DNA of 64,000 bases from a virus. Shown one piece after another: positions 7,339-31,512 of this stretch. Positions within the stretch are counted from its first letter, which is position 1. Every line of letters begins with the position of its first letter. The position numbers were made by a program, and so were the translations under genes. The notes beneath the pieces were generated by a model, which made no database searches, was not told the DNA's origin, and saw only the letters and a list, made by a program, of their open reading frames with translations. Location: IMG/VR virus record IMGVR_UViG_3300032753_000007, positions 32,001 to 96,000 of that record, one strand, 5' to 3'.

Positions 7339-8838
7339 ATGAATCTATTATCAGGTTTTACATCAGTACCGGCTATTACGCCAGCTTTTAATGTAGGTGG
7401 TGGTTTTGATATTTTAACCGGTGCATACTATATTGGTAGATGGGGGCAATCTATATTAAACGGTGGTTTATATTCTACAGTATCTATCGCTGGCCCTGCT
7501 AATTCATTTAAATCAGCTCTCATAGATTACTTACATTTAACAGTATGTGATAGAATTAAACCGTATCAATTATCTAAGTATTGTACTGAGAATTCATCTA
7601 CTTATAAACGGTTACAAGCACTTTGTGCTAAAATGCCTAATATGTCTAAAATAGATCACTCAAATGAATTTTTAGAACCTGAAGAAATAAAGATACGACT
7701 CACTACTATTAAAGAAGAAATGGGCGATGTGTATTTTTCTAAGATGAGTAAGCTATCTCGATTTAAAGCATCTGATAAATCTATAAAACGTTTTACTACA
7801 CCTTTTAGAAATGCTAAAGGCGATCCCATTACTATGATACAGCCTACTGGCCTTATCATAGACTCTATATCAGCTTTCATGACTACTAATGTAGAAGAAG
7901 GGATGATTGCTAATAATAACTTAGGTAGCTCTGAACAAAATACAGTATGGATGCGTTTAGGATTAGCTAAAAAATTATTAATATCTGAATTACCTGGATT
8001 ATGTTCTAGAGGCTCTATGTTTGTTGGTTTAACGGCTCATGTAGGCGAAGAGTTTGAATTAGGTGGCCCAATGGCACCTAAGAAACATAAGCTCACACAT
8101 GCTAAAAAAGGCACGACTATGAAAGGGGCTTCAAAAGCATTTGAGTATATAAATACTGTTTTATTTGAAATACAAAATGTTTCATTACTCAATAATAAAA
8201 CGTATAATACAGGTGTACTTTATCCAGCTAATGCAAGAGATAGAGGTGAAGAAACCGCTGATTTAATTTTAATTAAACTCATTGCTATTCGTAATAAAGA
8301 AGGTGGTAGTGGCAATAGATTAAATGTAGTTGTTTCACAACGTGAAGGTTTATTGCCTCATTTAACACAATTTCATCATTTAAAAGAATCTAAATTTTTT
8401 GGGTTAGTTGGAAATGATAGAAATTATGCATTAGCATTATTGCCCGACTTACCATTAAGTAGAACAACAGTAAGAAATCTTATTGACAATATGCCTGAGT
8501 TAAGAAGAGCATTAGAGATTACTGATGAGCTATTACAAATAAAAGAATACTGGGATACGCCTAAAGATGATTTACTCTGTACACCTGAAGAACTATACAA
8601 TGACATTATAGCATTAGGCTATAATTGGAAAACATTATTAAATACTAGAGGATGGTGGGTGTTTGATGAGCATCTTAATGATAATCTTCCTGAATTATCT
8701 ACCTGGGATTTATTGCGCATACGTAAAGGTTTATATAAGCCTTATTGGCTAAGCAGAAGTTGGGCTAAAACAGAAAAGCCAAAAGGACTCTTATTAGATG
8801 TACTATCACAAATATCTGAGGATGAAAAATATGACTAA
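7339..8838 (+). CDS. uvsX: UvsX/RecA-like recombinase (phiKZ gp152-like)
   Basis: Walker A GPANSFKS, Walker B LIIDSIS, LTAHVG and RNKEGGSG; size and position fit phiKZ-like RecA. Confidence 0.75.
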   Translation: MNLLSGFTSVPAITPAFNVGGGFDILTGAYYIGRWGQSILNGGLYSTVSIAGPANSFKSALIDYLHLTVCDRIKPYQLSKYCTENSSTYKRLQALCAKMPNMSKIDHSNEFLEPEEIKIRLTTIKEEMGDVYFSKMSKLSRFKASDKSIKRFTTPFRNAKGDPITMIQPTGLIIDSISAFMTTNVEEGMIANNNLGSSEQNTVWMRLGLAKKLLISELPGLCSRGSMFVGLTAHVGEEFELGGPMAPKKHKLTHAKKGTTMKGASKAFEYINTVLFEIQNVSLLNNKTYNTGVLYPANARDRGEETADLILIKLIAIRNKEGGSGNRLNVVVSQREGLLPHLTQFHHLKESKFFGLVGNDRNYALALLPDLPLSRTTVRNLIDNMPELRRALEITDELLQIKEYWDTPKDDLLCTPEELYNDIIALGYNWKTLLNTRGWWVFDEHLNDNLPELSTWDLLRIRKGLYKPYWLSRSWAKTEKPKGLLLDVLSQISEDEKYD

Positions 8839-9130
8839 AGATGTTTTAACCACTACAATAGATATCATTGCTGATGTCTGTAGTCATCGTGCCAGTGAAC
8901 GCTTTAAAGCTATGGTAACTAAAGCACGTTTTACACTAGATACTGAATTATCAGAAGCATTACAAGTCAAAGCTATTAATGTATTTTGGCGTAATCTTTT
9001 ATTAGATTATCCTAATACCATGCAAATTAGAATGTGGCTATGTGATTGTGAAACCATTGCAGCCTATGCACATGCATTTAAGTATTCGTGGTTACCTATG
9101 TTAGATGGCATTGGTATTTTCCATGACTAG
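8831..9130 (+). CDS. Hypothetical protein
   Basis: Track gives 8798..9130; GAGG SD favours the ATG at 8831 (MTKDV). Confidence 0.6.
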   Translation: MTKDVLTTTIDIIADVCSHRASERFKAMVTKARFTLDTELSEALQVKAINVFWRNLLLDYPNTMQIRMWLCDCETIAAYAHAFKYSWLPMLDGIGIFHD

Positions 9131-9785
9131 ACATGAAGTAGAAAAATGGTTTTTAGATTACATTGATGAGTTAGATCCAGGCAATGATAATGTTAAACTC
9201 TATAAAGAATTCTTTGCTACATTGAGTTTTAAAGATTTACAAAACTTAGGTAGACGATTAGTCAATAAAGAAATTACATTGCCGTATTATGCCGCTAATA
9301 TGGTAAATAGAGATATACCTGTTGATAATGCTTTAAAGGTATTAGATAAGTTAGGCGTTAATGTATTTCAGCGTGTAGAAGTAACTGATTCAGTAACAGG
9401 TGTTAGATATAAAAGTGCTGTTAAATATATGATATTAACATTACATGTTAGACGACAATCACAACATAGTTTAAAAGGTAAATCAACTGCTACAGATAGC
9501 GTTCATATTGACTATTTGACAGGTCAAGCAAGTGGTGTATCAGATACAACTCATTTATCATTACCTGAAATCATGAACTTAGAATCTGCTGGATTACATA
9601 AAGGCATTCAAGAAATGGTTAATGTACGAGGTGGTAATCAAAAAGGATTTAATGAAGCCAAACAACGTATTTATCAAACCGGTGGTTATAGCTTAGATTC
9701 TATTTTAGAATTAGGCTATAGACCTACTTCTACTGAAACGTTTCATGCATACTTACTTGGTATGCATTATGACAATAACTATTAA
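9123..9785 (+). CDS. Virion RNA polymerase beta subunit, C-terminal fragment (phiKZ gp149-like)
   Basis: KYMILTLHVRRQSQ...IDYLTGQ...LSLPEIMNLESAG...EMVNVRGG parallels the RpoB C-terminus (YMLKL.H...LVTQQ...GEMEVWALEAYG...EMLTVKS). Track start 9105. Confidence 0.75.
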   Translation: MTRHEVEKWFLDYIDELDPGNDNVKLYKEFFATLSFKDLQNLGRRLVNKEITLPYYAANMVNRDIPVDNALKVLDKLGVNVFQRVEVTDSVTGVRYKSAVKYMILTLHVRRQSQHSLKGKSTATDSVHIDYLTGQASGVSDTTHLSLPEIMNLESAGLHKGIQEMVNVRGGNQKGFNEAKQRIYQTGGYSLDSILELGYRPTSTETFHAYLLGMHYDNNY

Positions 9786-9799
9786 ATAGGATAATAGTA

Positions 9800-10588
9800 A
9801 TGTTAAAGCAAGGTGATACCTCTGTAAAAGTTAAGCAATTGCAATTAGCAATTGGTCTGAACAATATTACTGGTTACTTTGGCGTAGAAACAACTAATCG
9901 AATTAAACATATACAGCGAGATAAAAACATGATACCAACTGGAACAGTCAGCGATGATTTATTTAAAGAATTAGTACATACTACTGATATTAAATTAAAT
10001 CAACTTGTTAACATTTTACCTACTACTATCGTTAAAGAGCTCTATGCTTCTTTAAATCTTATACCAGAAATAACTGCTGCTAATATAGCACACTTTATAT
10101 CACAATGTATGGTAGAGAGTAGTAACTTTACACGCTGCGTAGAAGATTTAAGGTACTCAAAAGAAGGTTTATTAAAAAACTTTAGTAAATACTTTACACC
10201 TACTGAAGCCCATATATATGCTGGTAATGAAGCTAAAATTGCTAATCGCATTTATGCTAATCGCAATGGTAATGGAAATGAACACAGTGGTGATGGTTGG
10301 AAATATAAAGGCAGAGGCTATATATCACTAACATTTAAAGATAACTATAAAGAGTTTAGTGAGTATGTTAAACAACCTGCTATTATGACATCACCTGATT
10401 TAGTAGCTACTCAATACCCATTAGAGTCTGCTATATTCTTTTTTACTAAAAATAAATTATGGGGATTAAATGCACCTGCTAATAACCATGGTGTAATGAT
10501 TGTTAGAGAGCATGTTAATGGTGGCACAATTGGTTTATCAGAAGCCATTAAATGTTTTGATAAAGTCTATACTGCTATTAAAGCATGA
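9800..10588 (+). CDS. Modular endolysin: peptidoglycan-binding domain + GH19 (chitinase-like) domain
   Basis: LKQGD..VKQLQ..G.FG.ET (PG_binding_1); AHFISQCMVES, DGWKYKGRGYISLT, VNGG..GL (GH19). Confidence 0.9.
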   Translation: MLKQGDTSVKVKQLQLAIGLNNITGYFGVETTNRIKHIQRDKNMIPTGTVSDDLFKELVHTTDIKLNQLVNILPTTIVKELYASLNLIPEITAANIAHFISQCMVESSNFTRCVEDLRYSKEGLLKNFSKYFTPTEAHIYAGNEAKIANRIYANRNGNGNEHSGDGWKYKGRGYISLTFKDNYKEFSEYVKQPAIMTSPDLVATQYPLESAIFFFTKNKLWGLNAPANNHGVMIVREHVNGGTIGLSEAIKCFDKVYTAIKA

Positions 10589-13224: not shown

Positions 13225-13244
13225 ATCTTTATAAAGGAGTAAGT

Positions 13245-15818
13245 ATGGCTGATGTACAAGATCCAGAATATCAAGCAAGATTAGATCAAGCCAGTATTAA
13301 CGTTAACGGCACAGCTCAAGGTGGAGACAGTATCATTTATAATGGGGTAACTTACAACAAAAGCATTGTATTAGTTAATCCAAAAATTAATCCTGGAGCA
13401 TCACCAGATGGTAATTGGATAGCAGATATTACCCCTACACCAGGAGCAGCATTTGGATCTGATGGTGGCATTTCACCCACTTCAAGTATTCCAACATCTA
13501 CTAATGCTGCTAGTGGCTCTTTACTATCTGGCATTAGCAGTTCTGCAAACAATGTTGTTAGTGGTATATCTAGTAGTGCAGGTAATGCTGTAAATGGAAT
13601 TTCAAATACAGTAAACGGCGTTACTTCTCAAGCAAGTAGTTTACTAAATGGTGCTACTGATACAATTAGTAATTTACCTAAACAAGCGACATCATTATTA
13701 AGCGGTATATCTAGTACTGTATCGAGCGGCATTGGTAGCGTTGAATCGCTATTTAATTTTAGCTCAACGCCCTCTCCAGTAGTTACTCCTAATCCAGTAC
13801 CTACTCCTGTTGCTAAATTATCACCTACTAGTTTTCAAACATCACCTTTTGCTGAAAAAGTATTAGTAGATCCTTACCAAACATTTAATTTAAATAAACT
13901 CACATTACCAGAATTATCTATTGATAAAACAGTAGATTATTTAGAAAGCTTAATACCTACTGACATTATTAGCAATTTAAAAAAAGCACCAGACTTACTT
14001 AGCTTTTTATCACAAAAAGCAATGTCATTAGAAAATTTTGTAGGCTCATTAAGAAATATGATGCCGTCTAATTTTTCATTAGATGGCATATTAAGAAAAT
14101 GTGGTGCTTTAGATTTATTTAATAATATAAATGATATTAAAAACGTATATAGTAATTTAGGTGTAGAACTCAGTACCATTGGGCCAGATGCATTAGCTAC
14201 TGCTACTAATTACATATCTAATATAGAAGGTCAATTTAGTTCTGTATCTCAACAATTTTCATCATTAGGTGGAGGGCTATTAGGATCATATGGTAGCAAT
14301 AGTTATGGTAGTGTGCCTTATAGTTACAATGCATCGCCTATTGTATCTACTGCAGCTACATTAAGTTACGTTAATGAGTTAGCTAAAGTAACACCATCTA
14401 ATAGTGATATACTCTCTACAGTAGGATTAAATAGTATAAACAATAACAAACTATTAAATAGCACTACTAGCAGTACATTTACCACAATAATGGGAGCAGC
14501 TCAAACTATTGGTGCTTCTAATACGGCTAATATAGCTAATTCAGTATCGACATTAAATCCAGCATTAGTAACTTCTATTTATACACAAGCAGTAGCAAAA
14601 CTAGGAACAGCAAATAGTTCAGGAAATCTGCCTACTACAATTCCTAAAGTAGTAGCTTCTGGTATAGCTGCAGTAACTAAATTAGGTACAACTAATAGTA
14701 ATGCTATTTGTGCTATGACAACAACTCAATCAGCAGTTATTTTATCAATTGCTACACAATACGATACATTATCTTCTAAGTTCATTACTACGCTAACTAC
14801 ACAAATAGCAACGCATGGTAGTGCTACTATACAAACAATAGTTAATGATTTAAATACAGTTATTTCTACTACTGGTGTAACGCCATTATTAACGTTACTA
14901 AATACAGTTTATAAAACAAATAGCACTACTGCATTATCTACTGCTACAAATAGCAGTATTTATACAACGTTAATATCAGACATTAACGCCTATGGGATTA
15001 GCTTTATTTATTCACTTGCACAAAGCATTGCTGTTAGTGGTCAAGCTACTGTTATTTCACTAATTACAAATATTAGTGAAATAACGCCTGCTGTATTATC
15101 GCCTATACTAGCATCAGTATCCACTATACAAACAACAATGACTAGTTTAATTGCTGATATACAGACATTAACACCCGCACAATACACAGCTATTACAGAT
15201 ATATTGTCTACTTATGATCCTGGATTAATTAGTGCACTAGCTACTGCAAATACTACATTAACAGCAGCACAAGTACTACAAACTATCAATGCATTTACTA
15301 ATGTAGATCCTACTGTATTAAGTAATAGCATTATACAATTAACTAATCAGTCTACATCAACGCTAACTACTATTGGTAAATTAATGGCAGTTAATGAACC
15401 CTATAGCATTGTTAGTAATTCTGTGTATGGTGATCCAATATTACTACATTACGCAATAAAAGAAAGTTTAAAAATTTATTCATTAAAAGGTAATTATAAT
15501 GCTGTTTTAAATCTATTAACTAATTATAATGGCACTATTGTAGCCAATGATTTATTAACAGTTATTAGTAACCTATTAACTAATTATAAACAGACTACTT
15601 CTGATTTATTACTGGGATTAACAGAAGCGGGTGCTAATTTATTAAACGCTTTAAATAGCATTTATATTAATTGGTTTACTGTACTCAGAAATGGCATTAG
15701 TATTGAAAATACTTATATACTAATTGGCGCTAGTAACGATGCTTTAATTTTATTACAAACTCAACCATCCACAGCTATTGGGGCTACTTTAGTACTTGAT
15801 AACAACTATACAAAATAA
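13245..15818 (+). CDS. Large Ser/Thr-rich probable virion structural protein
   Basis: AAGGAG SD supports the start at 13245 (the track start 13188 lies inside the terminator); 11-residue SGISS repeats; low charge. Confidence 0.65.
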   Translation: MADVQDPEYQARLDQASINVNGTAQGGDSIIYNGVTYNKSIVLVNPKINPGASPDGNWIADITPTPGAAFGSDGGISPTSSIPTSTNAASGSLLSGISSSANNVVSGISSSAGNAVNGISNTVNGVTSQASSLLNGATDTISNLPKQATSLLSGISSTVSSGIGSVESLFNFSSTPSPVVTPNPVPTPVAKLSPTSFQTSPFAEKVLVDPYQTFNLNKLTLPELSIDKTVDYLESLIPTDIISNLKKAPDLLSFLSQKAMSLENFVGSLRNMMPSNFSLDGILRKCGALDLFNNINDIKNVYSNLGVELSTIGPDALATATNYISNIEGQFSSVSQQFSSLGGGLLGSYGSNSYGSVPYSYNASPIVSTAATLSYVNELAKVTPSNSDILSTVGLNSINNNKLLNSTTSSTFTTIMGAAQTIGASNTANIANSVSTLNPALVTSIYTQAVAKLGTANSSGNLPTTIPKVVASGIAAVTKLGTTNSNAICAMTTTQSAVILSIATQYDTLSSKFITTLTTQIATHGSATIQTIVNDLNTVISTTGVTPLLTLLNTVYKTNSTTALSTATNSSIYTTLISDINAYGISFIYSLAQSIAVSGQATVISLITNISEITPAVLSPILASVSTIQTTMTSLIADIQTLTPAQYTAITDILSTYDPGLISALATANTTLTAAQVLQTINAFTNVDPTVLSNSIIQLTNQSTSTLTTIGKLMAVNEPYSIVSNSVYGDPILLHYAIKESLKIYSLKGNYNAVLNLLTNYNGTIVANDLLTVISNLLTNYKQTTSDLLLGLTEAGANLLNALNSIYINWFTVLRNGISIENTYILIGASNDALILLQTQPSTAIGATLVLDNNYTK

Positions 15819-18706: not shown

Positions 18707-21700
18707 TTAATAGGTTCTACCACTACTAATAACAGGCGATAGTGTTTGTTTAGCAGATGATGCATTAGCTACAATAATATTTTGAGCAGGTGTATTTGCT
18801 GTTGACTTCATCGTAGTTAATATTTGAGCCAATAGATCATTAGTAGTAGACAATTTAGTAAGATGCTCATCATGTCTATTAGCTGAATCTTTATTAGCTT
18901 GTACTAATTTATCTTCAATAGGTTTAGTATTGAGTGCTGTTTGTGTAGTAACACTAGATAGCGTTGTTGCACTAGGTACAGGCGGCATATCGTTAGCTGT
19001 GCTTGTAGTTGTAGATTTAGATGCAGCTGCAATAGGCGATGTTACCGCATTAGCTGGCGTTACTGAGGTAGCAGGCGTAGGCATTACACTAGATGTAGGC
19101 ATTGGTGGCATGTCATTGCTTGCTAGTGATGGGCCATTTCCTTTAGTTGCAAATGCATCAGCAGGGGGTAAGCCACCTGTATTAATAGGCACATTTGTAT
19201 TAGCAATGGCATTACTACTAGACGATACTGCTACTTGATAGGCTTCATCTTCAGACATGCCTTTAGATAAGTTAGCTTTATATTGCGCTCTACTGACATT
19301 CATTGCAGTAATTACACGCTCAGCTGATACTGAAGCTACATTACCATGCCCGTGCTTACTTCTGCCTGTATTAGGGTCAGCTAAACTCGCCCATTCTTCA
19401 GCAGCAGCATTAGCAGCAGCAACTGGATTATCAGTTTTACCTTTAATATAGGCTGATATTTGAGGTCTTTTTTTATCTAATAAATATTTACTAAATAAGA
19501 GTTCTTGTGTTTTAGCATCAAACTTAGTTGTATCTGGATTTAATCCTAATTTCTTTATGCCGTCTATTAATGTTGGTGGAATCATTTGATACTTACCTAC
19601 AGCAAATAAACGACGCTCATCATTAGCAGATCTATTCATATCCGCTAGTATTTCAGATAATGTCATGCTCGTTAAATCACGATTACCTACTGGACCTAAA
19701 ATCTTATTACCAGAAGTACCACGATTATAAGCGTTATAGCCTTTACTGCCTGATTCAGCATTTTTAATTAAACCAGCTAATGAGTTAACTACCGGTTCAA
19801 CTAAATTAACTTTAGCCCAATCAATGCCTTTACCGGCTGCTGTTTTACCTAATGTGTAAAGCTCTTTAGCTTTATCACCTACTTTACCAGCAAAGTCTTT
19901 AATAGGATTTAATAAGTTTTCTTTACTCCAATCTACTGCTTGATCAAACATAGATTTCTTAGGTGTACCATCTGGATTAACGCCTTGCTGTCTATCTCTA
20001 TCATAGTTAGGTGGTAATACTGGTTTATCTTTATCTAGTTTAGTAACAGTAGGATGTAAATTAATTGCAGATACTTTCTTTAAGTTATCTGCTTTAGTAT
20101 CATTATTTCTATTAGCTTGATTCCTAAGTTGTTCTACTAATACGTCAATAGTACTTTTATTATCACTTAACGTTATATCATGCCAAGGACTATTTTGTAT
20201 GCCATAAGGATTCATACCTAAGTTAGCTTCAACAGAACCAAACTGTACTAAGTTAACAAACTTAATTATATCTTCTTTTTTTAATTCATCGTCAATATTG
20301 TCTACTTTACTTTTACCAAATTGCTGTAAGCTAGCTTTATGTTTAATATAAACAGGTAAAAACCGTTTATATAACCAGGTATTAAAGTTAGTCTTATCAG
20401 TCATGTTGTCATAAGTACAACCAAAATCTTTATAGTACTTTTCCCATACTTCTTTAGGCAATAAATCTATTTTAGGAATATTTTTAGTGAGTGTAATATG
20501 GGGTGTAAAATCAGATTCAAAATTACGCATATCTGCTACTGCTTGACTATTATCAATAGGTATACCATATTGTAAAAATCTTAATTTTTCTAAAGGCTCT
20601 AATGCTGTTCTATTCATTATATATTTAGTGCCTTTATATAAGCCATAGCCAGCAGCACCAACAATAATAGCCCAGCCTACTGGATTAGATAACAATAAAG
20701 CACTTTCACCTAACGCTGCGCCTGCCACGCCTAACTCACCAACAGTAGCTAGTCCAGCGCCACCTTCAGCAGCTGCAGTAGCAGCGCCTGCTGCAGTAGC
20801 AGCGGCTTCACCGCCAGCTAGTGCTCCAGCTCCAGCTACTCCTGCTGCACCTGCACCACCAATACCTAAAGCACCTAACGCTTTACCGCCCCAGCCTTTA
20901 GCATCTTTTACTAGATCACCTGCTTTACCAAATGCATCTAATATACTACCGCCAGTAGGAGTCACAATTGGTGCTGGTTTCTTATTAGTAGGTACACCCA
21001 TTTCACGTAATTTTTTAGCAGTTTCTTGTTTAGCTTTACGTTTTTTAATAATGTCTTGAAACCCACCTTCACGATTAGCTTCTTTTTCTTCACTATTTTC
21101 AGTAGGCCACTTAGTGCTAATATAGTTTTTAATATCTTTTAGTGTAGTATTAATGGTATCTAGTTTATTACTGATCTCATTAACGTTTTCATCTACTGAT
21201 TTAGTTTTCTTTCTATTTTTAAAGAAGCTGCTAATGCTGCCTACAGGATTTTTTAATACACCACCTAATTTACTAAACCAATTGCTAGCATCTTTTTTAT
21301 CAGGTTTTCGTTTACCCATAGCAGCAAATAATAAATTAGACATTACTTGAGTAGTGCCTGTAAAAGCACCCCAACTTAGTTTACCTAATGTACCTACTGC
21401 TCTAGCTGCACGCTTAGGTGCTTTCTTAGCAGACCACCATATTAGATTGCCTAATAGCTTTGCTGGGAGCAATGCGAGTTTAGCACTACCAATGCCTAAT
21501 TTAGCAGCTAATGGACCTAATACTTTAGCTACTGTCCAACCAACCTTAGCTAGTCTTTGTGCTCTTTCAGGGGCTTTCATTAGTTGTCTTTTTAAAAATC
21601 CACCACCTTTCCATAATGTTCTGCCTGTAAAGCCTAACATTGTTTTAAGCGGATTATAAGCAGCCATAGCTAAACTAAATGGTAGCTTTGCAAGTGTCCA

Positions 21701-24700
21701 AGGTATTTTTATTAATGCTCCGCCTTTATCTACTATAAAGCGGCTAATGCCAGATAAGCGTTTAAATGAATTACCAAATTTAATACCTAAATTTTTACGT
21801 ATACTAGGATCACCATCTGGAGAAGGGGCTGCATAGCCCGCTGATGGAATGGTAGCAATAATGGTTTGTAATAGTGTATTAGTGGATGTGCCTGTTTCTG
21901 TCAAAACAGTCATTAGATCTTTATGTTGATCTTTTAATTGTTTAGATAATGAAGTTAATTCATCAGGATTACTGCTATTGAATAAACCATTATGTTTTTG
22001 ATTATCATCATTATTCCATTTAGGTAAATTTAATTTAGGCAATTCTATTTTATTACCGTATTTATCATAGAGCTCAGTGGCATTTGTTTTTAATGCATTT
22101 ACGCCAGTACTCCATCTATTTTTAATGTTCTCTTTTATATCAGAGCCTTTTACTTTTTTTGCTTTATTTTTAATAAGCTCTTTTACTTTATTAACACTGC
22201 CATACTTTTCTTTAAGGTTATTAAACGTAGTTTCTCTGTTATCAAAAGCATGTGTTAATGCAGCATTAATTTGATTAGGTGTTAATCCTTTACTTGTTAA
22301 GTTTTCAAATAGTTTTGGATTTTTTTCTTTTATTAAAGTTTCTAAATTTTCTACTGTTGGTTTATCCGGTAATTGATCTTTATGTTTATCATAGAAACCA
22401 CGAATAGCAGTAGTAGCTGTATTAACTAGCTTATCTTTTCTTTCTAATAAATTAGTTTGTAAAGCTTTAGCATCAAAAGGCGTATGGATTACCTTATTAG
22501 CTTCTTCTAATTTAGTCTTTAATAAATCTTCTATTTCTTTTTTATTAAACCCACGTTTTTCTAATTCAGTAAATAGTTTACCACTTTGTGCAGTTAGTTG
22601 CTTACCGATTTCTTCAGGTTGTAATTGAGCGGGTATTAAATGTTTATGTTTATTATAGAAGGCTTTGCTTTGTTTACTTGCTTCAGTAATGTGTGGTGCA
22701 ACATGTTTTAATAAACCACTTTTAACATTTTCTATATTTTGAGATAATGGGATAGCTGTTAGTTTTCCTTTAGTATCTTGAATATAAGTTGATAGCCCTT
22801 TTATCCGCTTACTGCCAGCACTATATACGCTATTTAAATGTTTAGATAATTCACTTGGTGTGGAAGTATAATTAATAAATCCAGCACTAGGCATTAAATC
22901 AATCATGTTTTGTAGCAGGGCATTATTACTGCTGCTATGTGCTGCTAACGCCTTTAACATATCGCTATGATTAAAGCTCATTACATTAACTAATGTAGTA
23001 ATATTATCATTACTAAAATTAACATTAGTAGTAGGCGATATCCCCTCATTAATGTTAACTGTAGAGGATGTAGGCAATAATGAATTATTACTAGATAATG
23101 GTGTAGGGTGAATGGTTTTACCTGCCATTACTTTCATTCTGGCTTTAGGTGATTTATTTTGATCGCCATATAAAGCGTCAATTAAATCCCAACGATATTG
23201 TTGATTAACAGCACCTTCATTATTGATTAAATTACCTAATAACTCTTTAGTACCTGTTGCATTAGCTTCATTAAGTACGTCACCAAAATTACCCACGCCA
23301 TATCGCAAAGCATTATAATTTCTGCTAATGTCTTTTTTTAATGTAGCAGTTTCTATATCATTGCTTGATACAGTCTTTATTCCGTTTTCATTAAACTCTT
23401 CAGTAATTTTAAACTTTTCTATAAATAAATTAGCAATTTTATTACGAGATTCATATGAGAGTACAGCAGGTAAGTTATCAGGCGATGCATAGTCTATTGG
23501 GTCAAAGTTAACACCTTCAACCGCTGATTGTTTCATAAAGAAAATACCTAAATATTTTCTTTCATTGGCATTTAGTATATTTTTATCAGGATCAATTAAA
23601 TCAATGATATAATCAGCATTTGTTTTTAAATCAACACCGACTTCTTTTTTTAATAGCTCACTAACTCGTTTTTTAGCACTAGATAACGTAGTAAACTGTT
23701 CAGTACGTGTATCAAACGTCAATCGTTCTGCTATTTCACCATTGCCTGATGTGTAGTTATAGAGTTTAGTTTGTTGTTCTAATATACGAGAAAGATAGCC
23801 TGGAATAATCTCTATTAATGAGCGACGTGATATTAAATCCCATGATACTGTTTCTGTAGCATCACTCATTAAATTCTTATTAACAGATTCGCCTAATGTG
23901 CCATTATCGCCACCATTAAATAGCTCGCCTACTGAGCCTACTAATGACCCGTATTCTGCATGTTTAACTTTACGATTAATTATACCTGGTAGATCACCAA
24001 ACCAGCGTGCTAGATCTTGTCCTACTGCATTAGTTTTATTAATGGCGCTAGTGCCTCTTTCACCAAGCACATTTTCAACATGTTTTTTACCATTCTTTTT
24101 TATCCAACCTGCAAATAACTTTCCAAGACCTTCACGCGCTTCATCGCCTGCCATACCTGCTGCCATTTCAGCAGCAGATGGCATAAATTCATCCATGCCA
24201 TCTTCTTGAGGTAAATTAGAATTTATAGCACTAGCAAATTCACTAATTTGTGTTTTTAGATTATTTTTAATACGATTAGGCATATCACCTAATCGATTAC
24301 TAATACTCTTTTGTACACTACCAATGATGCGTCGTTTACTTTCATCTCTAAACTTTTCAGAATTAGTTACTTTAACTTCATTAGGTAATGCTGTATTTTT
24401 AACAACATCAGCTAATAATGTTAATGTTTTACTATTATGAGAAAGCGTATTTTCTAATATGTCTTGTGTAGCAAAATAATGGAGGTATTGTACTTCTAAT
24501 GACTTTTTATAATAAGTAGCTAATATCTTATCTTGAAAACCAACTATTCTTCCAATACCACTAACTATTTTATGCTGATACTCTATACCATGTTGAAATT
24601 TAGCTTTATCTAATTTAATGCTATTTAATTGAATAACATCATCGCGCTTTCTTTTTAACTTACCTTCAAGTTGTTGAGCACCAAAGATAGTTTCTAATGT

Positions 24701-25180
24701 ATCTTTTAATCCTGTTTCTCTTGTATTTGAAGACCGTCCATAATCGTATGAATCGGATTCTTTTCCTACATGAGACATGTCTTTTATTTTATTAGTCACT
24801 TTATTAGGTAAGAATTTACCTAATGTAGGGAGTGCTTTTTGTACTTTTTTATCAATAACATTTAGCGCAGGTGCAAGTTCTTTTCTTGCATCATCAAACA
24901 TGCTCTCTGCATCATATTTAAATGACATAATAGAGCTATAAGCGTCGCCGTAACTACCTGGTAATACATCTTTAATTAACTTACCTATAAAGCCAATGCC
25001 ATGCTCTTTTGGATTAAAACTGCTTTTTAATCCTGACGCTATATCGCTAATAGGTTTGCGATCTTTTTTAATATCAGGATCTGAATCATCAAAATCACCA
25101 AATTCAGATCCAAACTCTTTCATAAAGTCATCATAGTCATCATCTAAATCTAACTTTATATCATCATCTTTCTTTGCCAT
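18707..25180 (-). CDS. Giant virion lytic tail / tape-measure-like protein with lysozyme-superfamily domain (phiKZ gp181-like)
   Basis: 2157 aa; LIEIIPGYLSRI motif; G/A-rich hydrophobic stretch; muralytic domain AES..GYNAYN...FAVGKYQMIP.TL...FD..TQ...EWAS; divergent from the vRNAP genes as in phiKZ. Confidence 0.8.
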   Translation of the reverse strand: MAKKDDDIKLDLDDDYDDFMKEFGSEFGDFDDSDPDIKKDRKPISDIASGLKSSFNPKEHGIGFIGKLIKDVLPGSYGDAYSSIMSFKYDAESMFDDARKELAPALNVIDKKVQKALPTLGKFLPNKVTNKIKDMSHVGKESDSYDYGRSSNTRETGLKDTLETIFGAQQLEGKLKRKRDDVIQLNSIKLDKAKFQHGIEYQHKIVSGIGRIVGFQDKILATYYKKSLEVQYLHYFATQDILENTLSHNSKTLTLLADVVKNTALPNEVKVTNSEKFRDESKRRIIGSVQKSISNRLGDMPNRIKNNLKTQISEFASAINSNLPQEDGMDEFMPSAAEMAAGMAGDEAREGLGKLFAGWIKKNGKKHVENVLGERGTSAINKTNAVGQDLARWFGDLPGIINRKVKHAEYGSLVGSVGELFNGGDNGTLGESVNKNLMSDATETVSWDLISRRSLIEIIPGYLSRILEQQTKLYNYTSGNGEIAERLTFDTRTEQFTTLSSAKKRVSELLKKEVGVDLKTNADYIIDLIDPDKNILNANERKYLGIFFMKQSAVEGVNFDPIDYASPDNLPAVLSYESRNKIANLFIEKFKITEEFNENGIKTVSSNDIETATLKKDISRNYNALRYGVGNFGDVLNEANATGTKELLGNLINNEGAVNQQYRWDLIDALYGDQNKSPKARMKVMAGKTIHPTPLSSNNSLLPTSSTVNINEGISPTTNVNFSNDNITTLVNVMSFNHSDMLKALAAHSSSNNALLQNMIDLMPSAGFINYTSTPSELSKHLNSVYSAGSKRIKGLSTYIQDTKGKLTAIPLSQNIENVKSGLLKHVAPHITEASKQSKAFYNKHKHLIPAQLQPEEIGKQLTAQSGKLFTELEKRGFNKKEIEDLLKTKLEEANKVIHTPFDAKALQTNLLERKDKLVNTATTAIRGFYDKHKDQLPDKPTVENLETLIKEKNPKLFENLTSKGLTPNQINAALTHAFDNRETTFNNLKEKYGSVNKVKELIKNKAKKVKGSDIKENIKNRWSTGVNALKTNATELYDKYGNKIELPKLNLPKWNNDDNQKHNGLFNSSNPDELTSLSKQLKDQHKDLMTVLTETGTSTNTLLQTIIATIPSAGYAAPSPDGDPSIRKNLGIKFGNSFKRLSGISRFIVDKGGALIKIPWTLAKLPFSLAMAAYNPLKTMLGFTGRTLWKGGGFLKRQLMKAPERAQRLAKVGWTVAKVLGPLAAKLGIGSAKLALLPAKLLGNLIWWSAKKAPKRAARAVGTLGKLSWGAFTGTTQVMSNLLFAAMGKRKPDKKDASNWFSKLGGVLKNPVGSISSFFKNRKKTKSVDENVNEISNKLDTINTTLKDIKNYISTKWPTENSEEKEANREGGFQDIIKKRKAKQETAKKLREMGVPTNKKPAPIVTPTGGSILDAFGKAGDLVKDAKGWGGKALGALGIGGAGAAGVAGAGALAGGEAAATAAGAATAAAEGGAGLATVGELGVAGAALGESALLLSNPVGWAIIVGAAGYGLYKGTKYIMNRTALEPLEKLRFLQYGIPIDNSQAVADMRNFESDFTPHITLTKNIPKIDLLPKEVWEKYYKDFGCTYDNMTDKTNFNTWLYKRFLPVYIKHKASLQQFGKSKVDNIDDELKKEDIIKFVNLVQFGSVEANLGMNPYGIQNSPWHDITLSDNKSTIDVLVEQLRNQANRNNDTKADNLKKVSAINLHPTVTKLDKDKPVLPPNYDRDRQQGVNPDGTPKKSMFDQAVDWSKENLLNPIKDFAGKVGDKAKELYTLGKTAAGKGIDWAKVNLVEPVVNSLAGLIKNAESGSKGYNAYNRGTSGNKILGPVGNRDLTSMTLSEILADMNRSANDERRLFAVGKYQMIPPTLIDGIKKLGLNPDTTKFDAKTQELLFSKYLLDKKRPQISAYIKGKTDNPVAAANAAAEEWASLADPNTGRSKHGHGNVASVSAERVITAMNVSRAQYKANLSKGMSEDEAYQVAVSSSSNAIANTNVPINTGGLPPADAFATKGNGPSLASNDMPPMPTSSVMPTPATSVTPANAVTSPIAAASKSTTTSTANDMPPVPSATTLSSVTTQTALNTKPIEDKLVQANKDSANRHDEHLTKLSTTNDLLAQILTTMKSTANTPAQNIIVANASSAKQTLSPVISSGRTY

Positions 25181-25205: not shown

Positions 25206-27302
25206 ATGTTAAGTAAAAAAGAACCCTTTAATATATTTTTATTAAGTAATCAGAAATCACGTCTGATGGGCCTATTGCCTGTCCAATCAATGGACATTAA
25301 AAACATTGGTGGAGAATTTCATCCACAAGGGCTATACAGTATTGAAATATTTGGTGCACTAGGATCTAGGCAGCGTCAAAATAAACACGCCTATATTGAT
25401 ATGCGCTGTTATGTCATGCATCCTAAAATCTTTAGTGATTTAGAAAAACTAAAAGGACTCTATGCAGGCATCATGAGTAGAAAACAATATGCATTATGGG
25501 ATAATAACATAAAAGACTTTGTTAAGGCTGATGCCATTGATGGTAAAACAGGTTATTCTTTTTTTATGTCTCATTTTGAAGATATTCAGTTTCCACGTAA
25601 TGAGTCAGGCATACGCGATGCACGTATTGATCTATTAATACAAGAACAAAAAAAATGTATGTATCGCTATTTAGTTGTATTACCTGCAGGATTAAGAGAT
25701 TTGACTTATGATGAAAAAGGTCAAGAAGTAGAAGACGAAATTAATCCTATCTATAGAAAAATATTACGTACAGCTAATACTATTTTAGTAGATAATAACA
25801 ACATAAATCCAACAAATATTGATGTGGCTAGATGGACATTACAGACATCATTTAATGAGCTTTATGATTACATAGAATCAATCCTAAGTGGTAAGAAAGG
25901 ACTCATATTATCTAAATTAGCAGCACGCGCAGTGCATGGCGGTACACGGGCTGTATTGACGGCGGCGGATCCATCACCTGCTCATTTAAATGCGCCTGGT
26001 GGCTTTACTGTAAATGATACATTAGTGGGTTTACATCAATATATAAAAGGTACAGTAGAGTTAACTATTTATGGTATTAAAACAGGGTTAGCTAAAGACA
26101 TTATTGATAGATTACCTGGTGAAATATCATTAGTTAATAAAAGCACTTTAACTAAAATAACATTAAACCCATCAACTGATACAGTTACATTATGGGGTGG
26201 CGAAGTAGGATTAGAAAAACTAATTAATAAGTTTGAAAAACCTATTATACGACATAACCCTATAATGATTGATGGTCATTATTTAGCTTTGTTATATAGA
26301 GATAGTACGCATTTTAAAGTACTGTATGATATTACTGATTTACCTAAAGAGTTTAATAAAGCTAACGTAAAACCTATTACATGGGCTGAGTTTTTTTATT
26401 TAGCTGTTTATGAGCGCGTTAAAGATGTAGCAGTTTATGTTACGCGTTATCCTATTACTGAATTAGGTAGTATTTATCCATCTATGGTTAAATTACAAAC
26501 AACTGTACAGTGTGAAAAGCTAATACCATTAGATGATGATTGGAAACCTATAACTACTAATGTAAATGAAGTAACTGCCTACGCAATGCCTGTTTTAGGT
26601 AAACCCTTTTATGATAGTATCTCTGTACATACTACAAAGCTTCTTGAATTAAACGCAGATTATGACGGTGATAAAGTAAATGCTGTATTTGTAATGTCTA
26701 AAGAAGCAGTAGATGAAGTAAAAAAATACCATCATACAAAAACTACTTTTTTAAATAGTAGTGGTAGTTTACGGTATGGTGCTTGTGGTGTTAAAGATCC
26801 ATTAATTGGCTTGATATTACAAGGACTAACATCCGGTTTAGATAAAGATAAAATAATTACTATAGAGCCATTAAAAGAGAGTGAAACTAAAAATTATATT
26901 CAGTTAGTTGAACATAAATCACATGACCCTTCATTAGGTGGCATTGTTATTGATAAATTAAAAGCTGAATCTATTTATAGTAATTTATCTGATAGTGCTA
27001 ATATAGGCTATACATTGAAACGAGGTAGTGCTATAGTTGGATTTGCTGTTTTTATTCGATCAGGCGTTTCTATGTCAGGTGAATTATACTGTATTGTTTT
27101 AGATATTTATTCAGGTAATAACTACGGCTATAAAATACTTAAAACATTATTAAAGCAATTAAAAACACTAGGTGTTAAAGAAGTCATTACTACTGTAGGT
27201 AAAGACGCATCTGCTGGTATTGTTTTATGTAAAAAACTAGGCTTTATGTATGTGCCAATTAAATCACCTAATGTAATAGAATATCGTTTGAGGTTATTAT
27301 GA
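25206..27302 (+). CDS. Virion RNA polymerase beta' catalytic subunit (phiKZ gp180-like) with C-terminal GNAT-like domain
   Basis: GLYSIEIFG, VLPAGLRD, GKKG, TRYP and catalytic NADYDGD (aa ~483-489). The last ~150 aa resemble a GNAT fold. Confidence 0.88.
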   Translation: MLSKKEPFNIFLLSNQKSRLMGLLPVQSMDIKNIGGEFHPQGLYSIEIFGALGSRQRQNKHAYIDMRCYVMHPKIFSDLEKLKGLYAGIMSRKQYALWDNNIKDFVKADAIDGKTGYSFFMSHFEDIQFPRNESGIRDARIDLLIQEQKKCMYRYLVVLPAGLRDLTYDEKGQEVEDEINPIYRKILRTANTILVDNNNINPTNIDVARWTLQTSFNELYDYIESILSGKKGLILSKLAARAVHGGTRAVLTAADPSPAHLNAPGGFTVNDTLVGLHQYIKGTVELTIYGIKTGLAKDIIDRLPGEISLVNKSTLTKITLNPSTDTVTLWGGEVGLEKLINKFEKPIIRHNPIMIDGHYLALLYRDSTHFKVLYDITDLPKEFNKANVKPITWAEFFYLAVYERVKDVAVYVTRYPITELGSIYPSMVKLQTTVQCEKLIPLDDDWKPITTNVNEVTAYAMPVLGKPFYDSISVHTTKLLELNADYDGDKVNAVFVMSKEAVDEVKKYHHTKTTFLNSSGSLRYGACGVKDPLIGLILQGLTSGLDKDKIITIEPLKESETKNYIQLVEHKSHDPSLGGIVIDKLKAESIYSNLSDSANIGYTLKRGSAIVGFAVFIRSGVSMSGELYCIVLDIYSGNNYGYKILKTLLKQLKTLGVKEVITTVGKDASAGIVLCKKLGFMYVPIKSPNVIEYRLRLL

Positions 27303-27565
27303 AAGAAGAGTATAAAATTAAATTATTAGCATTAGTAAAGTTAATAAAAAAACGTTTATGTAAATTAGTAGGCTGTAATTTTTCATTAGTTGATGAAGTC
27401 ACTGTAAACGCTATTAGTAAACACCAATCTTATACTAAATTTACATTAAGCTGTAAACGCTGTAAAGGTGATATGATGATTGGTATGCTAGTGCCTATTA
27501 CTGAAATAGAGTTAGAAGATGCTATTTTATTAGAAAAATTTAAAAAGGGGTTAATTGTAAAATGA
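27299..27565 (+). CDS. Small putative Zn-binding protein (DUF1660-like)
   Basis: LCKLVGC and CKRCKG motifs; inserted between two RNAP genes. Confidence 0.5.
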   Translation: MKEEYKIKLLALVKLIKKRLCKLVGCNFSLVDEVTVNAISKHQSYTKFTLSCKRCKGDMMIGMLVPITEIELEDAILLEKFKKGLIVK

Positions 27566-30500
27566 CACTATTATCTACAGATGCTTTTACAACACAATTT
27601 GTTACACGACAATTAAATAAACTCAGCACTGTATCTCGTTTACGATCAGTTGATGATTTTGAATTACCTGAAAATGCGATTATTCATTATGTTAGTGATA
27701 GCGATCAGGTATTAGGCATTACTAAATCTAACGATATGATTAGAAGTACTAGCGATGTTTATACTTATCACGTTGATGCATTAGAGGGTAAAGAAGGCCA
27801 TTATAGTAAATCAGAAACTACACTAAATGCTTTAATTACAAAATACCATCAGTTTAATTTAGGTATTAAACGCATTAATAATCTGTCAAGTGTATTAGAA
27901 AAAGTTAAACAGCCTATTGTAGTTAACTATAGCATGTTACCTTCTTTATACAAATATACTGTTTCTTCATTATCAGTCTATTACGAGTGGTTAAATATAC
28001 GGACTACTATTTGGCACCATATTAAAGAAATAGGCAGCGATAAGCTTCATTTTATAGTTTATAAAATACCTGAAGTATTAATTACTAAAAATGATTTAAA
28101 CAAATATGCCCATAATTTTAAACCTGATGCGTTAGAATTATTTACTGATATTAATAATTTAAACCTATTAGAGCTATGGCGAATGTTAGGCGAAAATAAT
28201 ACTACATTAGAAAGTGAAATGGATGAATTACTTTTAAGTAAAGTACATATCGTATTTATTGAAAGTAGACATATCGGTATTTTTACATTAAAGTCTTTTA
28301 TTGATTGGGGTAAAAGCGATGGCTCTAAAGCTAAGATAGAGTTTTATAATTTCTTAGATAATTTAATTGCTAAACGCTCTAACTTAGAATCTGAAAAACT
28401 AATTAAAGAAGCAGGTGAAGAGCCTGAACAAGGTGAAATTAATAATGATAAAATTCATCAATTAATTAATGAAAAAGCAGAAAACGGCTTATTATCTACT
28501 AATGAAAAGAAAGCTTTATTAAAACTATCTGAAAAACATAAAACAGTAATAGACCCTGTTACTGGTTTAACGTTAGATAAAATAGCTGTTAAAAATACTG
28601 AATTAGTATTAAAGAAAAAACCACTCATTAAAGATAATAATACTATTTTTGATAAGTCTATGCTATACAGTAGCATTAGAGATTTAGACAAGCAATATAT
28701 TGAAGAAGGCTTATTACATCGGCATATGATAGAATCCGTAATGATGTTACATCCAGCAGGTGTCATTGTTAAAGATATGCGTGTTAAAGATAAAATGACA
28801 GCCGCTACTAAAGCAACTGTATATAGTTTTTCTTTACAGCCTATTAATGGGCCTTCATCTACTATTACTTTTCCTATCCCTAAAATTAATCCAGATGGTA
28901 CATTTTTAGCTGGTGGTGTTTTATATCGAATGGATAAGCAACATGGTGAAATGCCAATTGCTAAAATTAAACACGATACAGTTAAATTAACTAGCTATTA
29001 CGGCACTATCTTTATTAATCGATCTGAAAGTACAGTGACTAATCTATCTAAATGGATAGTCAATGCATTAGTTAAATTGACTAAAGCAGGATCAGTTACT
29101 AATTTAGTTTATGGTATTACTACTAAATTTGATAAAAACTTACCTAGACAATATACAGCCATAATGAAAAGTATTAGTCGGTTTAATTATCAGACTACTG
29201 AAGTTAATTATAGCTTTTATTTTACCTATAGTAAGCTTAGTAATTTCTTTTCAGAAACAGAAATAGCTAAATTTGCTAATAGTAAGTTAGTAGGTTGTGG
29301 TAGAAATGAAAAGACAGGTAATCTATTAGTCATGGATGAGTTAGGTGATGTAATAGAGTTACAAGATAACTCACCACTTAACTTAGGCAAGATACAGAAT
29401 ATACTATCTGATACAGGTGGCCCTATTGAATATACTGAAATGGGTTTATTAAATAGACGTATTCCAGTAATAATGGCTATGTGTTATGTACATGGATTTA
29501 CTAAAATTTTATCTGAATTAAAAGTACCTCTTGTTCAACATCCAGCAGGCACTAGAGTGCCCTATAAGCCAAAAACTTATGTATTAAAATTTAAAGATGT
29601 CGTTATTGAATTACCTTATAGAAATGTAGAAGAAGAATTACTATTCGGCGGGTTTATGCCATTTCGTAAAGATTTAATCAATTTCCGTAGTGGCGATTTA
29701 AATAAACGAACTGCTTATTCTAATTTATTAAGTGGTAATGGATTATCTACTTATCATTTTAGAGAATTATTATTAATGTGGGATATGTACATTGATCCTA
29801 TTACAGCTGCACTATTACGAGAAACTGATGCACCTACGGACATCTTTAATGTTATATTAGCAGCTAATCGTTTATTAATTAACGATGCTATGCCTGATTA
29901 TACGACTGTACGGTATAAAGGCTATGAAAGACTATGTGGGTTTATGTATAAAGAGCTTATTGGTGCAGTTAAAGCACACCGTGCTAAAGGCGCTTTAAGT
30001 GATGTAGGCATTACTATTAAACCTAATGGTGTTTGGTTAAATATATTGGAAGATCAATCTATTGTCTTAGTAGAACAAAGTAACCCTATTCATAATTTAA
30101 AAGAGCAAGAAAGCTTTACTCATGCAGGTGCTGGCGGTAAGTCCGCCATTACTATGGTAGCTGCTACACGTGGTTTTAAAGACAGCGATTTAGGTGTTGT
30201 ATCTGAAGCTACACCTGATTCTGCTAAAGTAGGTATTAGAGCTATGTTAACGCCTAATGCTAATATTGTTAATCTATTAGGTATGGTTAAACAATATGAA
30301 GAAGATAAAGATGGTATTAGTTCAGTTATATCTACAACTGCTATGTTAGCACCAGGCATTACCCATGATGATGGAAAACGATGGAACTTTAATAATGTTC
30401 AAATGTCACATGGTGTAGCTGCGATTGGTTATCAACCGTTACCCTATCGTACTGGTTATGAGCAAACAATTGCTAATCGTGTTAGTGATTTATTTGCTAC

Positions 30501-31512
30501 TGTAGCTACAGGTAATGGTTTTGTTTCTGAGATTAAATCATCTGGCATTACAATTACTTATGATGATGGTTCTAGTAAAACGTATTTCTTAGGTGTTAAA
30601 CACGGCATTGTATCGGGCAGTACTATACCACATCACATTGTAACGCATTTAAATAAAAATGATAAAGTTATTAAAGATCAAGTCATTTGTTATAATGACG
30701 GGTTCTTTACAACAGGCGAATTAGATCCAAAAAGCATTATTTATAAACACGGCGTTATTTGTAGAATCGCATTAGCTGAAGATAGCGATACATTAGAAGA
30801 CGGTTGCGTTATATCAAAAGGATTAGCTGATAAACTATTAACACCTACATCAGAAGTCTATGGCATTGTTTGTGACTTTAGTATGGCAATACATAATTTA
30901 GTTACTATTGGACAACGCGTTACACCTGAAACTATTTTGTGTATTCTTGAGCATAGCTATGAAGGTGCTGCAGAAAAAGATTCTGATGCAATTTGGGCAT
31001 TAAGTCAATTGAGCAATATATCGCCTAAATGTAAAGTCTATGGTACAGTCAGCGATATTGAAGTAGTTTACTTTGGTAAGCTAGAAGATATGTCACCTTC
31101 TTTAGCTGAAGTCGTTAGACACTACGATGCAATACGAAATCGTAATGTTAAAACCTATTCTTTAAATGAAGCTAAATCAGGTGAAATCGATGAAACAATT
31201 CGTGTATCAGGTAAAAAGCTAATTAAGAATCAAGCAGCTATTAAGATATATGTGGATTATATTTTAGATATGGGTGATGGCGATAAGATCGTTATAGGCC
31301 ATCCATTAAAAACAACCATTAGTCGAGTAGACATTAATCCTATGACAACTGACGATGGTGTTGAAGTAGATGCTTTATTTGGCGCTCAATCGGTATCAGC
31401 GCGTATTGTAAAATCTGCTGAAATATGTGGATTATCAAATGAAGTAATGTGTAAATTATCAGTAGATTTTGGTGAAATGGTTTTAAAACTTAATGAAGGA
31501 GATAACAAATGA
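27562..31512 (+). CDS. Virion RNA polymerase beta subunit, main fragment (phiKZ gp178-like)
   Basis: DGTFLAGG, SEATPDSAKVG, HDDGKR..F...Q..H, TLEDGCVIS, GDKIVIGHPLKT. Confidence 0.9.
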   Translation: MTLLSTDAFTTQFVTRQLNKLSTVSRLRSVDDFELPENAIIHYVSDSDQVLGITKSNDMIRSTSDVYTYHVDALEGKEGHYSKSETTLNALITKYHQFNLGIKRINNLSSVLEKVKQPIVVNYSMLPSLYKYTVSSLSVYYEWLNIRTTIWHHIKEIGSDKLHFIVYKIPEVLITKNDLNKYAHNFKPDALELFTDINNLNLLELWRMLGENNTTLESEMDELLLSKVHIVFIESRHIGIFTLKSFIDWGKSDGSKAKIEFYNFLDNLIAKRSNLESEKLIKEAGEEPEQGEINNDKIHQLINEKAENGLLSTNEKKALLKLSEKHKTVIDPVTGLTLDKIAVKNTELVLKKKPLIKDNNTIFDKSMLYSSIRDLDKQYIEEGLLHRHMIESVMMLHPAGVIVKDMRVKDKMTAATKATVYSFSLQPINGPSSTITFPIPKINPDGTFLAGGVLYRMDKQHGEMPIAKIKHDTVKLTSYYGTIFINRSESTVTNLSKWIVNALVKLTKAGSVTNLVYGITTKFDKNLPRQYTAIMKSISRFNYQTTEVNYSFYFTYSKLSNFFSETEIAKFANSKLVGCGRNEKTGNLLVMDELGDVIELQDNSPLNLGKIQNILSDTGGPIEYTEMGLLNRRIPVIMAMCYVHGFTKILSELKVPLVQHPAGTRVPYKPKTYVLKFKDVVIELPYRNVEEELLFGGFMPFRKDLINFRSGDLNKRTAYSNLLSGNGLSTYHFRELLLMWDMYIDPITAALLRETDAPTDIFNVILAANRLLINDAMPDYTTVRYKGYERLCGFMYKELIGAVKAHRAKGALSDVGITIKPNGVWLNILEDQSIVLVEQSNPIHNLKEQESFTHAGAGGKSAITMVAATRGFKDSDLGVVSEATPDSAKVGIRAMLTPNANIVNLLGMVKQYEEDKDGISSVISTTAMLAPGITHDDGKRWNFNNVQMSHGVAAIGYQPLPYRTGYEQTIANRVSDLFATVATGNGFVSEIKSSGITITYDDGSSKTYFLGVKHGIVSGSTIPHHIVTHLNKNDKVIKDQVICYNDGFFTTGELDPKSIIYKHGVICRIALAEDSDTLEDGCVISKGLADKLLTPTSEVYGIVCDFSMAIHNLVTIGQRVTPETILCILEHSYEGAAEKDSDAIWALSQLSNISPKCKVYGTVSDIEVVYFGKLEDMSPSLAEVVRHYDAIRNRNVKTYSLNEAKSGEIDETIRVSGKKLIKNQAAIKIYVDYILDMGDGDKIVIGHPLKTTISRVDINPMTTDDGVEVDALFGAQSVSARIVKSAEICGLSNEVMCKLSVDFGEMVLKLNEGDNK

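Follow-up and report, generated by a model that had tools for sequence, protein, structure and literature searches.

A degenerate acetyltransferase-like domain at the C-terminus of a predicted phage virion RNA polymerase subunit

Background

The packaging, delivery and start-up of the virion RNA polymerase (RNAP) of phiKZ-like phages are poorly understood, and to our knowledge no structure of this enzyme has been solved. In phiKZ itself, each virion holds 7-10 copies of the gp180 subunit, which forms an assembly with gp178, gp80 and gp149; gp180, even as the fusion mCherry-gp180, is packaged and, at an early stage of the following infection, is observed together with the injected DNA (PMC10612078). 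Once delivered, the polymerase carries out early transcription inside the early infection vesicle (PMC13282480). Here we describe a gp180-type gene in a 64,000-nucleotide stretch of viral DNA, hereafter the window, taken from positions 32,001 to 96,000 of IMG/VR record IMGVR_UViG_3300032753_000007 (109,752 bases, estimated to be 41% complete; G+C content of the window about 31%). The encoded protein shares with phiKZ gp180 and its homologs, for example gp163 of Erwinia phage RAY, the polymerase part, the NADxDGD motif and the order of the surrounding genes. Whereas these homologs stop at about 538-550 amino acids, the window protein continues for 150 residues that are predicted to adopt the fold of GNAT-family acetyltransferases.

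Fusion of a GNAT fold to a polymerase subunit

The gene and its parts lie as follows in the window.

25206..26849, + strand: RNAP part of the fusion, predicted gp180-type virion RNAP beta' N-terminal subunit, residues 1-548 (phrog_2986 match and homologs)
26652..26672, + strand: catalytic Mg-binding motif NADYDGD, residues 483-489 (translation)
26826..26849, + strand: junction LTSGLDKD, spanning the normal end of unfused homologs (alignment A2, AlphaFold model)
26850..27299, + strand: GNAT-fold domain, RimI-like and degenerate, residues 549-698 (PF00583, AlphaFold, Foldseek)

The open reading frame (ORF) at 25206-27302 on the + strand is a single uninterrupted frame of 698 amino acids, closed by a TGA stop at 27300-27302. 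In a PHROG scan, residues 4-525 match phrog_2986, an RNA polymerase subunit family, with an E value of 8.7e-171, and D485, D487, G488 and D489 of the catalytic motif are invariant in alignments A2 and A4 of polymerase subunit relatives. Homologs of the polymerase part were found by tblastn in 313 deposited phage genomes, all of them less than 60% identical; among those listed, identity ranges from 34 to 41%, with 39% for the best match, and they belong to jumbo phages that infect, among other hosts, Pseudomonas, Erwinia and Vibrio. Unfused homologs terminate at about residue 543-547 of the window protein. The RAY counterpart, gp163, has 538 amino acids and is annotated as 'vRNAP beta' subunit 1', vRNAP standing for virion RNAP. 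The window has the same gene order as RAY, where a divergent giant lysozyme gene (gp162) is followed by the genes for vRNAP beta' 1 (gp163) and vRNAP beta 1 (gp164). The profile match and the NADxDGD motif place the protein among the gp180-type beta' N-terminal subunits, and the RAY-like neighbourhood places it in the virion rather than the non-virion polymerase set. Taken together, profile, homologs and gene order therefore identify the ORF, at the level of sequence, as the predicted gp180-type catalytic beta' N-terminal subunit of a virion polymerase. A profile search aligned profile positions 469-517 to E. coli beta' 447-495; by extrapolation, the fusion point would lie near beta' residue 520. 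A phmmer search of the PDB with the last 150 residues of the polymerase part gave no match.

The additional sequence, which opens with the stretch KIITIEPLKES, starts at 26850, directly after the position at which the unfused proteins P0006 and P0008 end in alignment A2 (...TRGL(xx)). There is almost no linker ahead of it: in the AlphaFold model the first strand begins at domain residue 11. Residues 549-698 taken alone match the Pfam family PF00583 (Acetyltransf_1) with 23.1 bits against a cut-off of 20.7, and with 23.3 bits in the genome scan; the match is marginal, the whole 698-residue protein scoring 19.4 bits, slightly below the same cut-off. Weaker matches involve four other GNAT models and two PHROG acetyltransferase families. 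The best named NCBIfam family is RimI (TIGR01575), at 21.3 bits, well short of the equivalog cut-off of 86.4; RimI is also the best named family for the corresponding domains of the relatives, none of which reaches that cut-off.

A tRNA-acetylating toxin of the TacT/AtaT type was considered and set aside: no such family is named among the reported matches, and RimI always comes out best.

Using a 12-sequence alignment of natural relatives (A3), AlphaFold produced a model of the domain with a predicted local distance difference test score (pLDDT) of 77.9, a predicted template modelling score (pTM) of 0.75 and the GNAT topology b1-a1-a2-b2-b3-b4-a3-b5-a4-b6-b7; an earlier model from a 4-sequence alignment reached a pLDDT of 49 and was left out of the fold search. 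A Foldseek comparison of the model with the PDB returned at least 500 matches at E<=0.001, the best with an E value of 1e-9 and template modelling (TM) scores of 0.75-0.78 over the whole domain. The approximately 40 top-ranked entries listed are all GNAT-family acetyltransferases, including RimI, SpeG, and phosphinothricin and protein acetyltransferases. Topology and fold matches thus both assign the domain to the GNAT fold. In a viral fold library, the matches comprise many GNATs of phages and giant viruses, some annotated as 'internal virion protein A' or DUF2824. Furthermore, a profile made from nine fused relatives, with the window sequence left out, aligns to the window domain end to end with 36 bits; the same profile scores two generic GNATs higher (51 bits for P0002 and 64 bits for the best domain of P0003).

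A preliminary description, made from the letters of the window, had read the extension as GNAT-like and as fused to the gp180-type catalytic subunit. Both points stand: the two parts form a single frame with a phrog_2986 match, the isolated domain exceeds the Pfam cut-off, and the model of residues 549-698 has the full GNAT topology with close structural counterparts. We regard a real fusion with a GNAT fold as almost certain.

The same description had raised the possibility of a lost stop codon or an assembly artefact. We compared the ORF with contigs from other public runs of lake-water and freshwater metagenomes. Record 2 of X4 (25412-26888) and record 11 of X5 (26555-27136) bridge the junction with zero differences, and a 28.8-kilobase contig (X6), from a pond metagenome of another study, covers the whole ORF. 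X6 differs from the window by 148 substitutions in 2360 bases (6.3%) and by a single in-frame 9-base deletion at 26783; its form corresponds to protein P0001, which has 695 amino acids, is 95% identical and carries the same 3-residue gap. Across four independent assemblies, the GNAT frame contains neither frameshift nor stop. Three observations speak against an artefact, whether a lost stop codon, a chimeric assembly or read-through into a separate downstream GNAT gene: contigs from three other runs bridge positions 26826-26850, the sister protein P0001 originates from other sources, and this architecture, with its junction at the same place, recurs in at least ten divergent relatives. The probability that remains for this explanation is negligible, and we treat an artefact as excluded.

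Relatives and evolution of the add-on

The extension is missing from all 313 deposited phage genomes that have a polymerase homolog, and the GNAT domain alone has no match in deposited phage genomes. Two fused relatives used as queries likewise reached only about 76-79% coverage in the best deposited phage records listed. The earlier remark that no such fusion is known from phiKZ gp180 is thus confirmed and extends to every deposited genome with a homolog. The idea that the extension might be unique proved wrong, since metagenomic relatives that form a clade have it too. At least ten of these, 40-46% identical overall, carry a GNAT, an InPase (inorganic pyrophosphatase) domain or both at the same C-terminus. 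In a large protein collection, fused forms of 692-700 amino acids are represented by P0005, P0007, P0010, P0012, P0015 and P0047, with P0048 as a fragment. Other arrangements are more elaborate: the 1214-residue P0031 (locus L005) has a GNAT, an InPase, a second GNAT-like stretch and an unknown C-terminal domain; the 1000-residue P0026 has an InPase as its only add-on; and at locus L006 the second part of a split gene (8116-9888) encodes the end of the polymerase subunit, an InPase, a GNAT and then a domain that appears HAD-like by eye. The InPase of these relatives is of the polyvalent-protein type PF18823 (E values 1e-49 to 1e-55). On the basis of these sequences, the window fusion is one form of a predicted recurrent habit of the clade, in which a GNAT and/or an InPase, with further domains, is placed on the same C-terminus.

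These relatives could be detected only through the polymerase part of the query. A word-based search with the GNAT domain alone gave no match, and HMMER with the domain over 1.84 billion representatives returned only P0001 and the two generic GNATs P0002 and P0003. Scanning viral contigs with the single protein found nothing, whereas an alignment-based scan succeeded. Full-text literature searches produced no report of a GNAT or InPase fused to a virion polymerase subunit, and the available part of the jumbo-phage survey of Iyer et al. makes no mention of either domain on such a subunit (PMC7824862).

In many relatives, the gene of the beta' N-terminal subunit is split directly after the catalytic DxDGD. 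At locus L003, the insert (7474-8145) holds a group I intron at 7607-7921 (RF00028, 77 bits), and a second group I intron (13225-13518) lies inside the beta gene. The insert of L025 (945-2690) holds an ORF of about 470 amino acids that may be a candidate homing endonuclease, and that of L006 (7474-8115) has no Rfam match. The window's own fusion gene is intact and has no intron. The 490-residue protein P0011 is exactly the first exon of L003, and P0044, which is 93% identical to the first exon of L006, is likely a first exon as well. Other database entries of 480-494 amino acids in this family may, judging from their sequences, also be first exons only; if entries of about 490 residues are first exons of intron-split genes, add-ons are therefore under-counted.

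A quick IQ-TREE phylogeny of the polymerase part (70 rows) places all GNAT-bearing rows within one 36-row clade (support of 95 in the SH-like approximate likelihood ratio test, SH-aLRT), intermixed with unfused forms. The window protein and P0001 are sister to the 491-residue P0004, their nearest relative (61%), of which the database has exon 1 only, and group next (support 86) with the GNAT-bearing P0007, P0012 and P0015. Labelling each row by its add-on requires at least four gains or losses in the clade, a minimum obtained with first-exon-only forms, including P0044, scored as unknown. When P0044 is instead labelled GNAT-bearing as the presumed exon 1 of L006, to which it is only 93% identical, the minimum is five; with this labelling, an approximately unbiased (AU) test rejects the grouping of all fused forms in a clade of their own (p 1.6e-7). 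The window GNAT is 17-25% identical to those of other relatives, with polymerase cores at 45-53%; the GNATs of the other subclades are 23-39% identical among themselves. Common descent of most add-ons is nevertheless likely from their sequences, because their junctions coincide, their sizes agree (152-161 residues) and they have a G/N-Y-G signature in common. Domain orders differ between lineages, and the C-terminal region has therefore been reshuffled. In our reading, the fusion is old and part of a habit of one uncultivated freshwater jumbo-phage clade, which attaches accessory enzyme domains at this C-terminus in varying order.

Degenerate motifs and sequence constraint

Motifs A and B of the GNAT domain are both altered in the window.

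27111..27128, + strand: pyrophosphate-binding loop of motif A in degenerate form, S-G-N-N-Y-G, which the model places after strand 4 and ahead of helix 3 (alignment A3, translation)
27204..27245, + strand: degenerate motif B, D-A-S-A-G-I-V-L-C-K-K-L-G-F (alignment A3, phmmer alignments, translation)

In alignment A3, all nine fused relatives keep motif A as Q/R/H-x-x-G-Y-G/N/S, and all keep the Asn and Ala of N-x-x-A and the Tyr of L-Y-x-x-x-G-F. The window protein and P0001 have S-G-N-N-Y-G, D-A-S-A and L-C-K-K-L-G-F at these places, with Ala668 (27207-27209) where the family has Asn and Cys675 (27228-27230) where it has Tyr. Only the last Gly thus remains of the GNAT motif A consensus Q/R-x-x-G-x-G/A, and the Asn and the helix-4 Tyr of the motif B consensus N-x-x-A-x-x-L-Y-x-x-x-G-F are both missing. 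The phmmer alignments to the solved GNATs 1y7r and 1y9k display the same motif changes. The preliminary description had flagged two of these positions, Gly to Asn and Tyr to Cys; both replacements are real, and two more, Q/R to Ser and Asn to Ala, accompany them. All four occur in the window lineage only. With four family-invariant residues gone, this domain is a weaker candidate for classical acetyltransferase activity than its counterparts in the relatives, and the sequence suggests, on balance, that acetyl transfer has been lost or strongly reduced in this lineage.

Between the window and P0001, at 6.3% DNA divergence, identity is 95.3% in the extension, where 7 of 150 residues have changed, and 95.5% in the polymerase core. 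In four further pairs, drawn from the other fused relatives, change in the extension is roughly double that in the core (for example, 81% identity in the core versus 66% in the extension, or 76% versus 53%). By this comparison of sequences, the GNAT domain is conserved like the polymerase core and appears still constrained in this lineage.

Loss of the four invariant residues together with retained constraint therefore points to a non-catalytic or altered role. The reading that we favour, with moderate confidence, is an accessory GNAT riding on the injected polymerase, which in the window lineage would be non-catalytic, much weakened or altered. Alternatively, the domain may be a decaying, functionless remnant of a once active GNAT, heading for the loss already seen in unfused relatives. 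Lost canonical residues, marginal family scores and repeated gain or loss of the add-on within the clade (at least four events) would fit such a history. It accounts poorly for only 7 amino acid changes in 150 residues relative to the sister, for a frame free of frameshifts and stops in four independent assemblies, and for the well-packed fold that is predicted; we consider decay improbable.

The main rival is a still-active acyltransferase with an unorthodox site, delivered to acetylate a host or phage protein, a polyamine or another amine early in infection. Such an enzyme is suggested by the full GNAT fold that is predicted, with an intact cofactor cleft between beta4 and beta5, by retention of the final Gly in motif A and of L-x-K-K-L-G-F where motif B ends, and by purifying selection equal to that on the polymerase core. 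Furthermore, the relatives look fully competent, the structures closest to the model among those solved are of SpeG- and RimI-type enzymes, and phage GNATs can target host RNAP, as does Rac of phiKMV-like phages (PMC7552054, as cited in PMC7824862). Against activity, all four positions that are invariant in nine relatives of 17-39% identity have changed, the Pfam score barely reaches its threshold, and the fused-relative profile recognizes the domain less well than it does the generic GNATs P0002 and P0003 (36 bits against 51 and 64). We regard this rival as the less probable of the two accounts.

Several further points weigh against our reading of an accessory GNAT that is here non-catalytic, weakened or altered. 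Of all residues other than Gly, Asn is the one that left-handed turns accommodate best, and S-G-N-N-Y-G might therefore still bind pyrophosphate. The helix-4 Tyr is not used by all active GNATs, and the Tyr-Cys pair of strand 4 (ELYCI, 27081-27095) and Asp667 beside Ala668 could compensate for the lost residues. The constraint estimate comes from one sister sequence. Alignment A3 contained true GNATs, which biases AlphaFold towards that fold; yet these are the protein's own natural relatives. Finally, the GNATs of the subclades are only 17-39% identical, so that a single origin of all of them is likely from sequence but falls short of proof.

Delivery and proposed function

As phiKZ gp180 is packaged and delivered, the add-on of its window counterpart is inferred to enter the next cell with the genome, and by this analogy we consider delivery of the domain together with the polymerase quite likely. 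Once inside, the add-on would stay beside the genome and the early transcription machinery, as with the injected 'polyvalent proteins'. In the relatives, the GNAT would be a RimI-like protein acetyltransferase, acting with InPase at the start of infection on co-injected phage proteins, the polymerase itself or host proteins within reach. To judge from its sequence, this GNAT of the relatives is probably active and acetylates proteins (N-alpha or Lys), because every canonical acetyl-CoA-binding and catalytic residue is kept (CoA, coenzyme A).

The window domain probably began as such a RimI-like protein acetyltransferase. It may since have been kept for binding or structure, that is, for docking of a partner, for packaging of the polymerase, or for binding of CoA or acyl-CoA. 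The preliminary description had proposed an acyltransferase or ligand-sensing module injected with the vRNAP, with host proteins, tRNA or early transcription as conceivable targets: the fusion and the GNAT fold hold, as Pfam, AlphaFold and Foldseek all indicate, whereas classical activity has become less likely with the loss of the four residues. In its most specific form, our proposal is that of a predicted pseudoenzyme. The C-terminus would be a general delivery platform (for GNAT, pyrophosphatase and HAD-like domains), bringing its cargo into the early infection compartment along with the genome to work beside the transcribing enzyme, and the GNAT of this lineage a catalytically silent binder of CoA, acyl-CoA or a peptide that tunes early transcription or polymerase packaging. 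With so many particulars, this version is a doubtful one; if true, it would mean a pseudoenzyme regulator built into a viral RNA polymerase.

The natural occurrence of a family of polymerase subunits with additional enzyme domains, always at a single site, shows this C-terminus to be exposed and tolerant of cargo. The add-ons also suggest which chemistry is wanted at the first moment of infection, namely protein acetylation and pyrophosphate removal. Relatives with canonical GNAT motifs and the window lineage, degenerate but constrained, constitute a matched pair for experiment.

Neighbouring genes

Three genes flank or follow the fusion.

18707..25180, - strand: predicted giant virion protein, 2157 amino acids (placed and oriented like RAY gp162, 'putative lysozyme domain protein')
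27299..27565, + strand: orphan ORF of 88 amino acids, four of them Cys (C-x4-C ... C-x2-C), located after the beta' N gene and before the beta gene (ORF list)
27562..31512, + strand: predicted virion RNAP beta subunit (gp178-type), 1316 amino acids (phrog_3148, 1128.7 bits; position of RAY gp164)

The gene of the 2157-residue protein is divergent from the polymerase genes, and its virion label derives from position and orientation. The start of the 88-residue ORF overlaps the stop of the fusion (ATGA), and its Cys pattern is possibly that of a zinc ribbon. It has no Pfam or PHROG match, and tblastn found no counterpart in 38 other loci. At L025, an unrelated ORF of 145 amino acids and unknown function (2871-3308) occupies the same slot; small genes particular to single lineages seem to accumulate in this interval that separates beta' N from beta. 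The beta subunit has 1316 amino acids in the window and 1527 in Erwinia phage RAY; its N-terminal region appears shorter and diverged, because the PHROG match begins at residue 281 and profile position 391. Further ORFs of the window match PHROG families of tail sheath, large terminase, DNA polymerase and virion structural proteins, and several families of unknown function.

Comparison with known systems

The closest parallel in domain content is offered by the polyvalent proteins, which are injected and contain RimI-like GNATs and a PF18823-type InPase, as described by Iyer et al. 2017 (PMC5512222). That paper proposes that the InPase clears pyrophosphate for early replication or transcription and, in the part available, lists no fusion of a GNAT to an RNAP subunit (PMC5512222). 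As in those proteins, a RimI-like GNAT and another enzyme domain are here joined in one polypeptide that is expected to enter with the DNA, and relatives add InPase. The window protein has two unrelated functional domains, the catalytic part of RNAP and a GNAT, and so corresponds to the usual description of a polyvalent protein, which combines at least two such domains from a typical repertoire. It differs in that the carrier is a subunit of a multisubunit RNAP, rather than a MuF, portal or ART-type protein. Moreover, unlike polyvalent RimI-like GNATs, the window GNAT is without the canonical motif residues.

Rac of phiKMV-like phages is a free protein made after infection. It resembles the window domain as a phage GNAT linked to the take-over of transcription; unlike Rac, the window domain is joined covalently to the virion polymerase of the phage itself. 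Rac, a stand-alone GNAT, acetylates the alpha subunit of host RNAP (PMC7552054, as cited in PMC7824862). The survey that cites it also describes an HD phosphohydrolase fused to the C-terminal part of RNAP beta in Bacillus jumbo phages, a precedent for an accessory enzyme on a jumbo-phage RNAP subunit, although domain, subunit and phage group all differ (PMC7824862). Free-standing GNATs are numerous in jumbo phages according to the same survey by Iyer et al. (PMC7824862).

A lead, and only a lead, comes from the GNAT folds of podovirus 'internal virion protein A'/DUF2824, which take ranks 3, 17 and 33 in the viral fold library (E values 2e-7 to 9e-6); these are small free-standing proteins, 13-20% identical to the window domain. 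What is new at this locus is the logic of polyvalent proteins on a new carrier, a multisubunit virion RNA polymerase.

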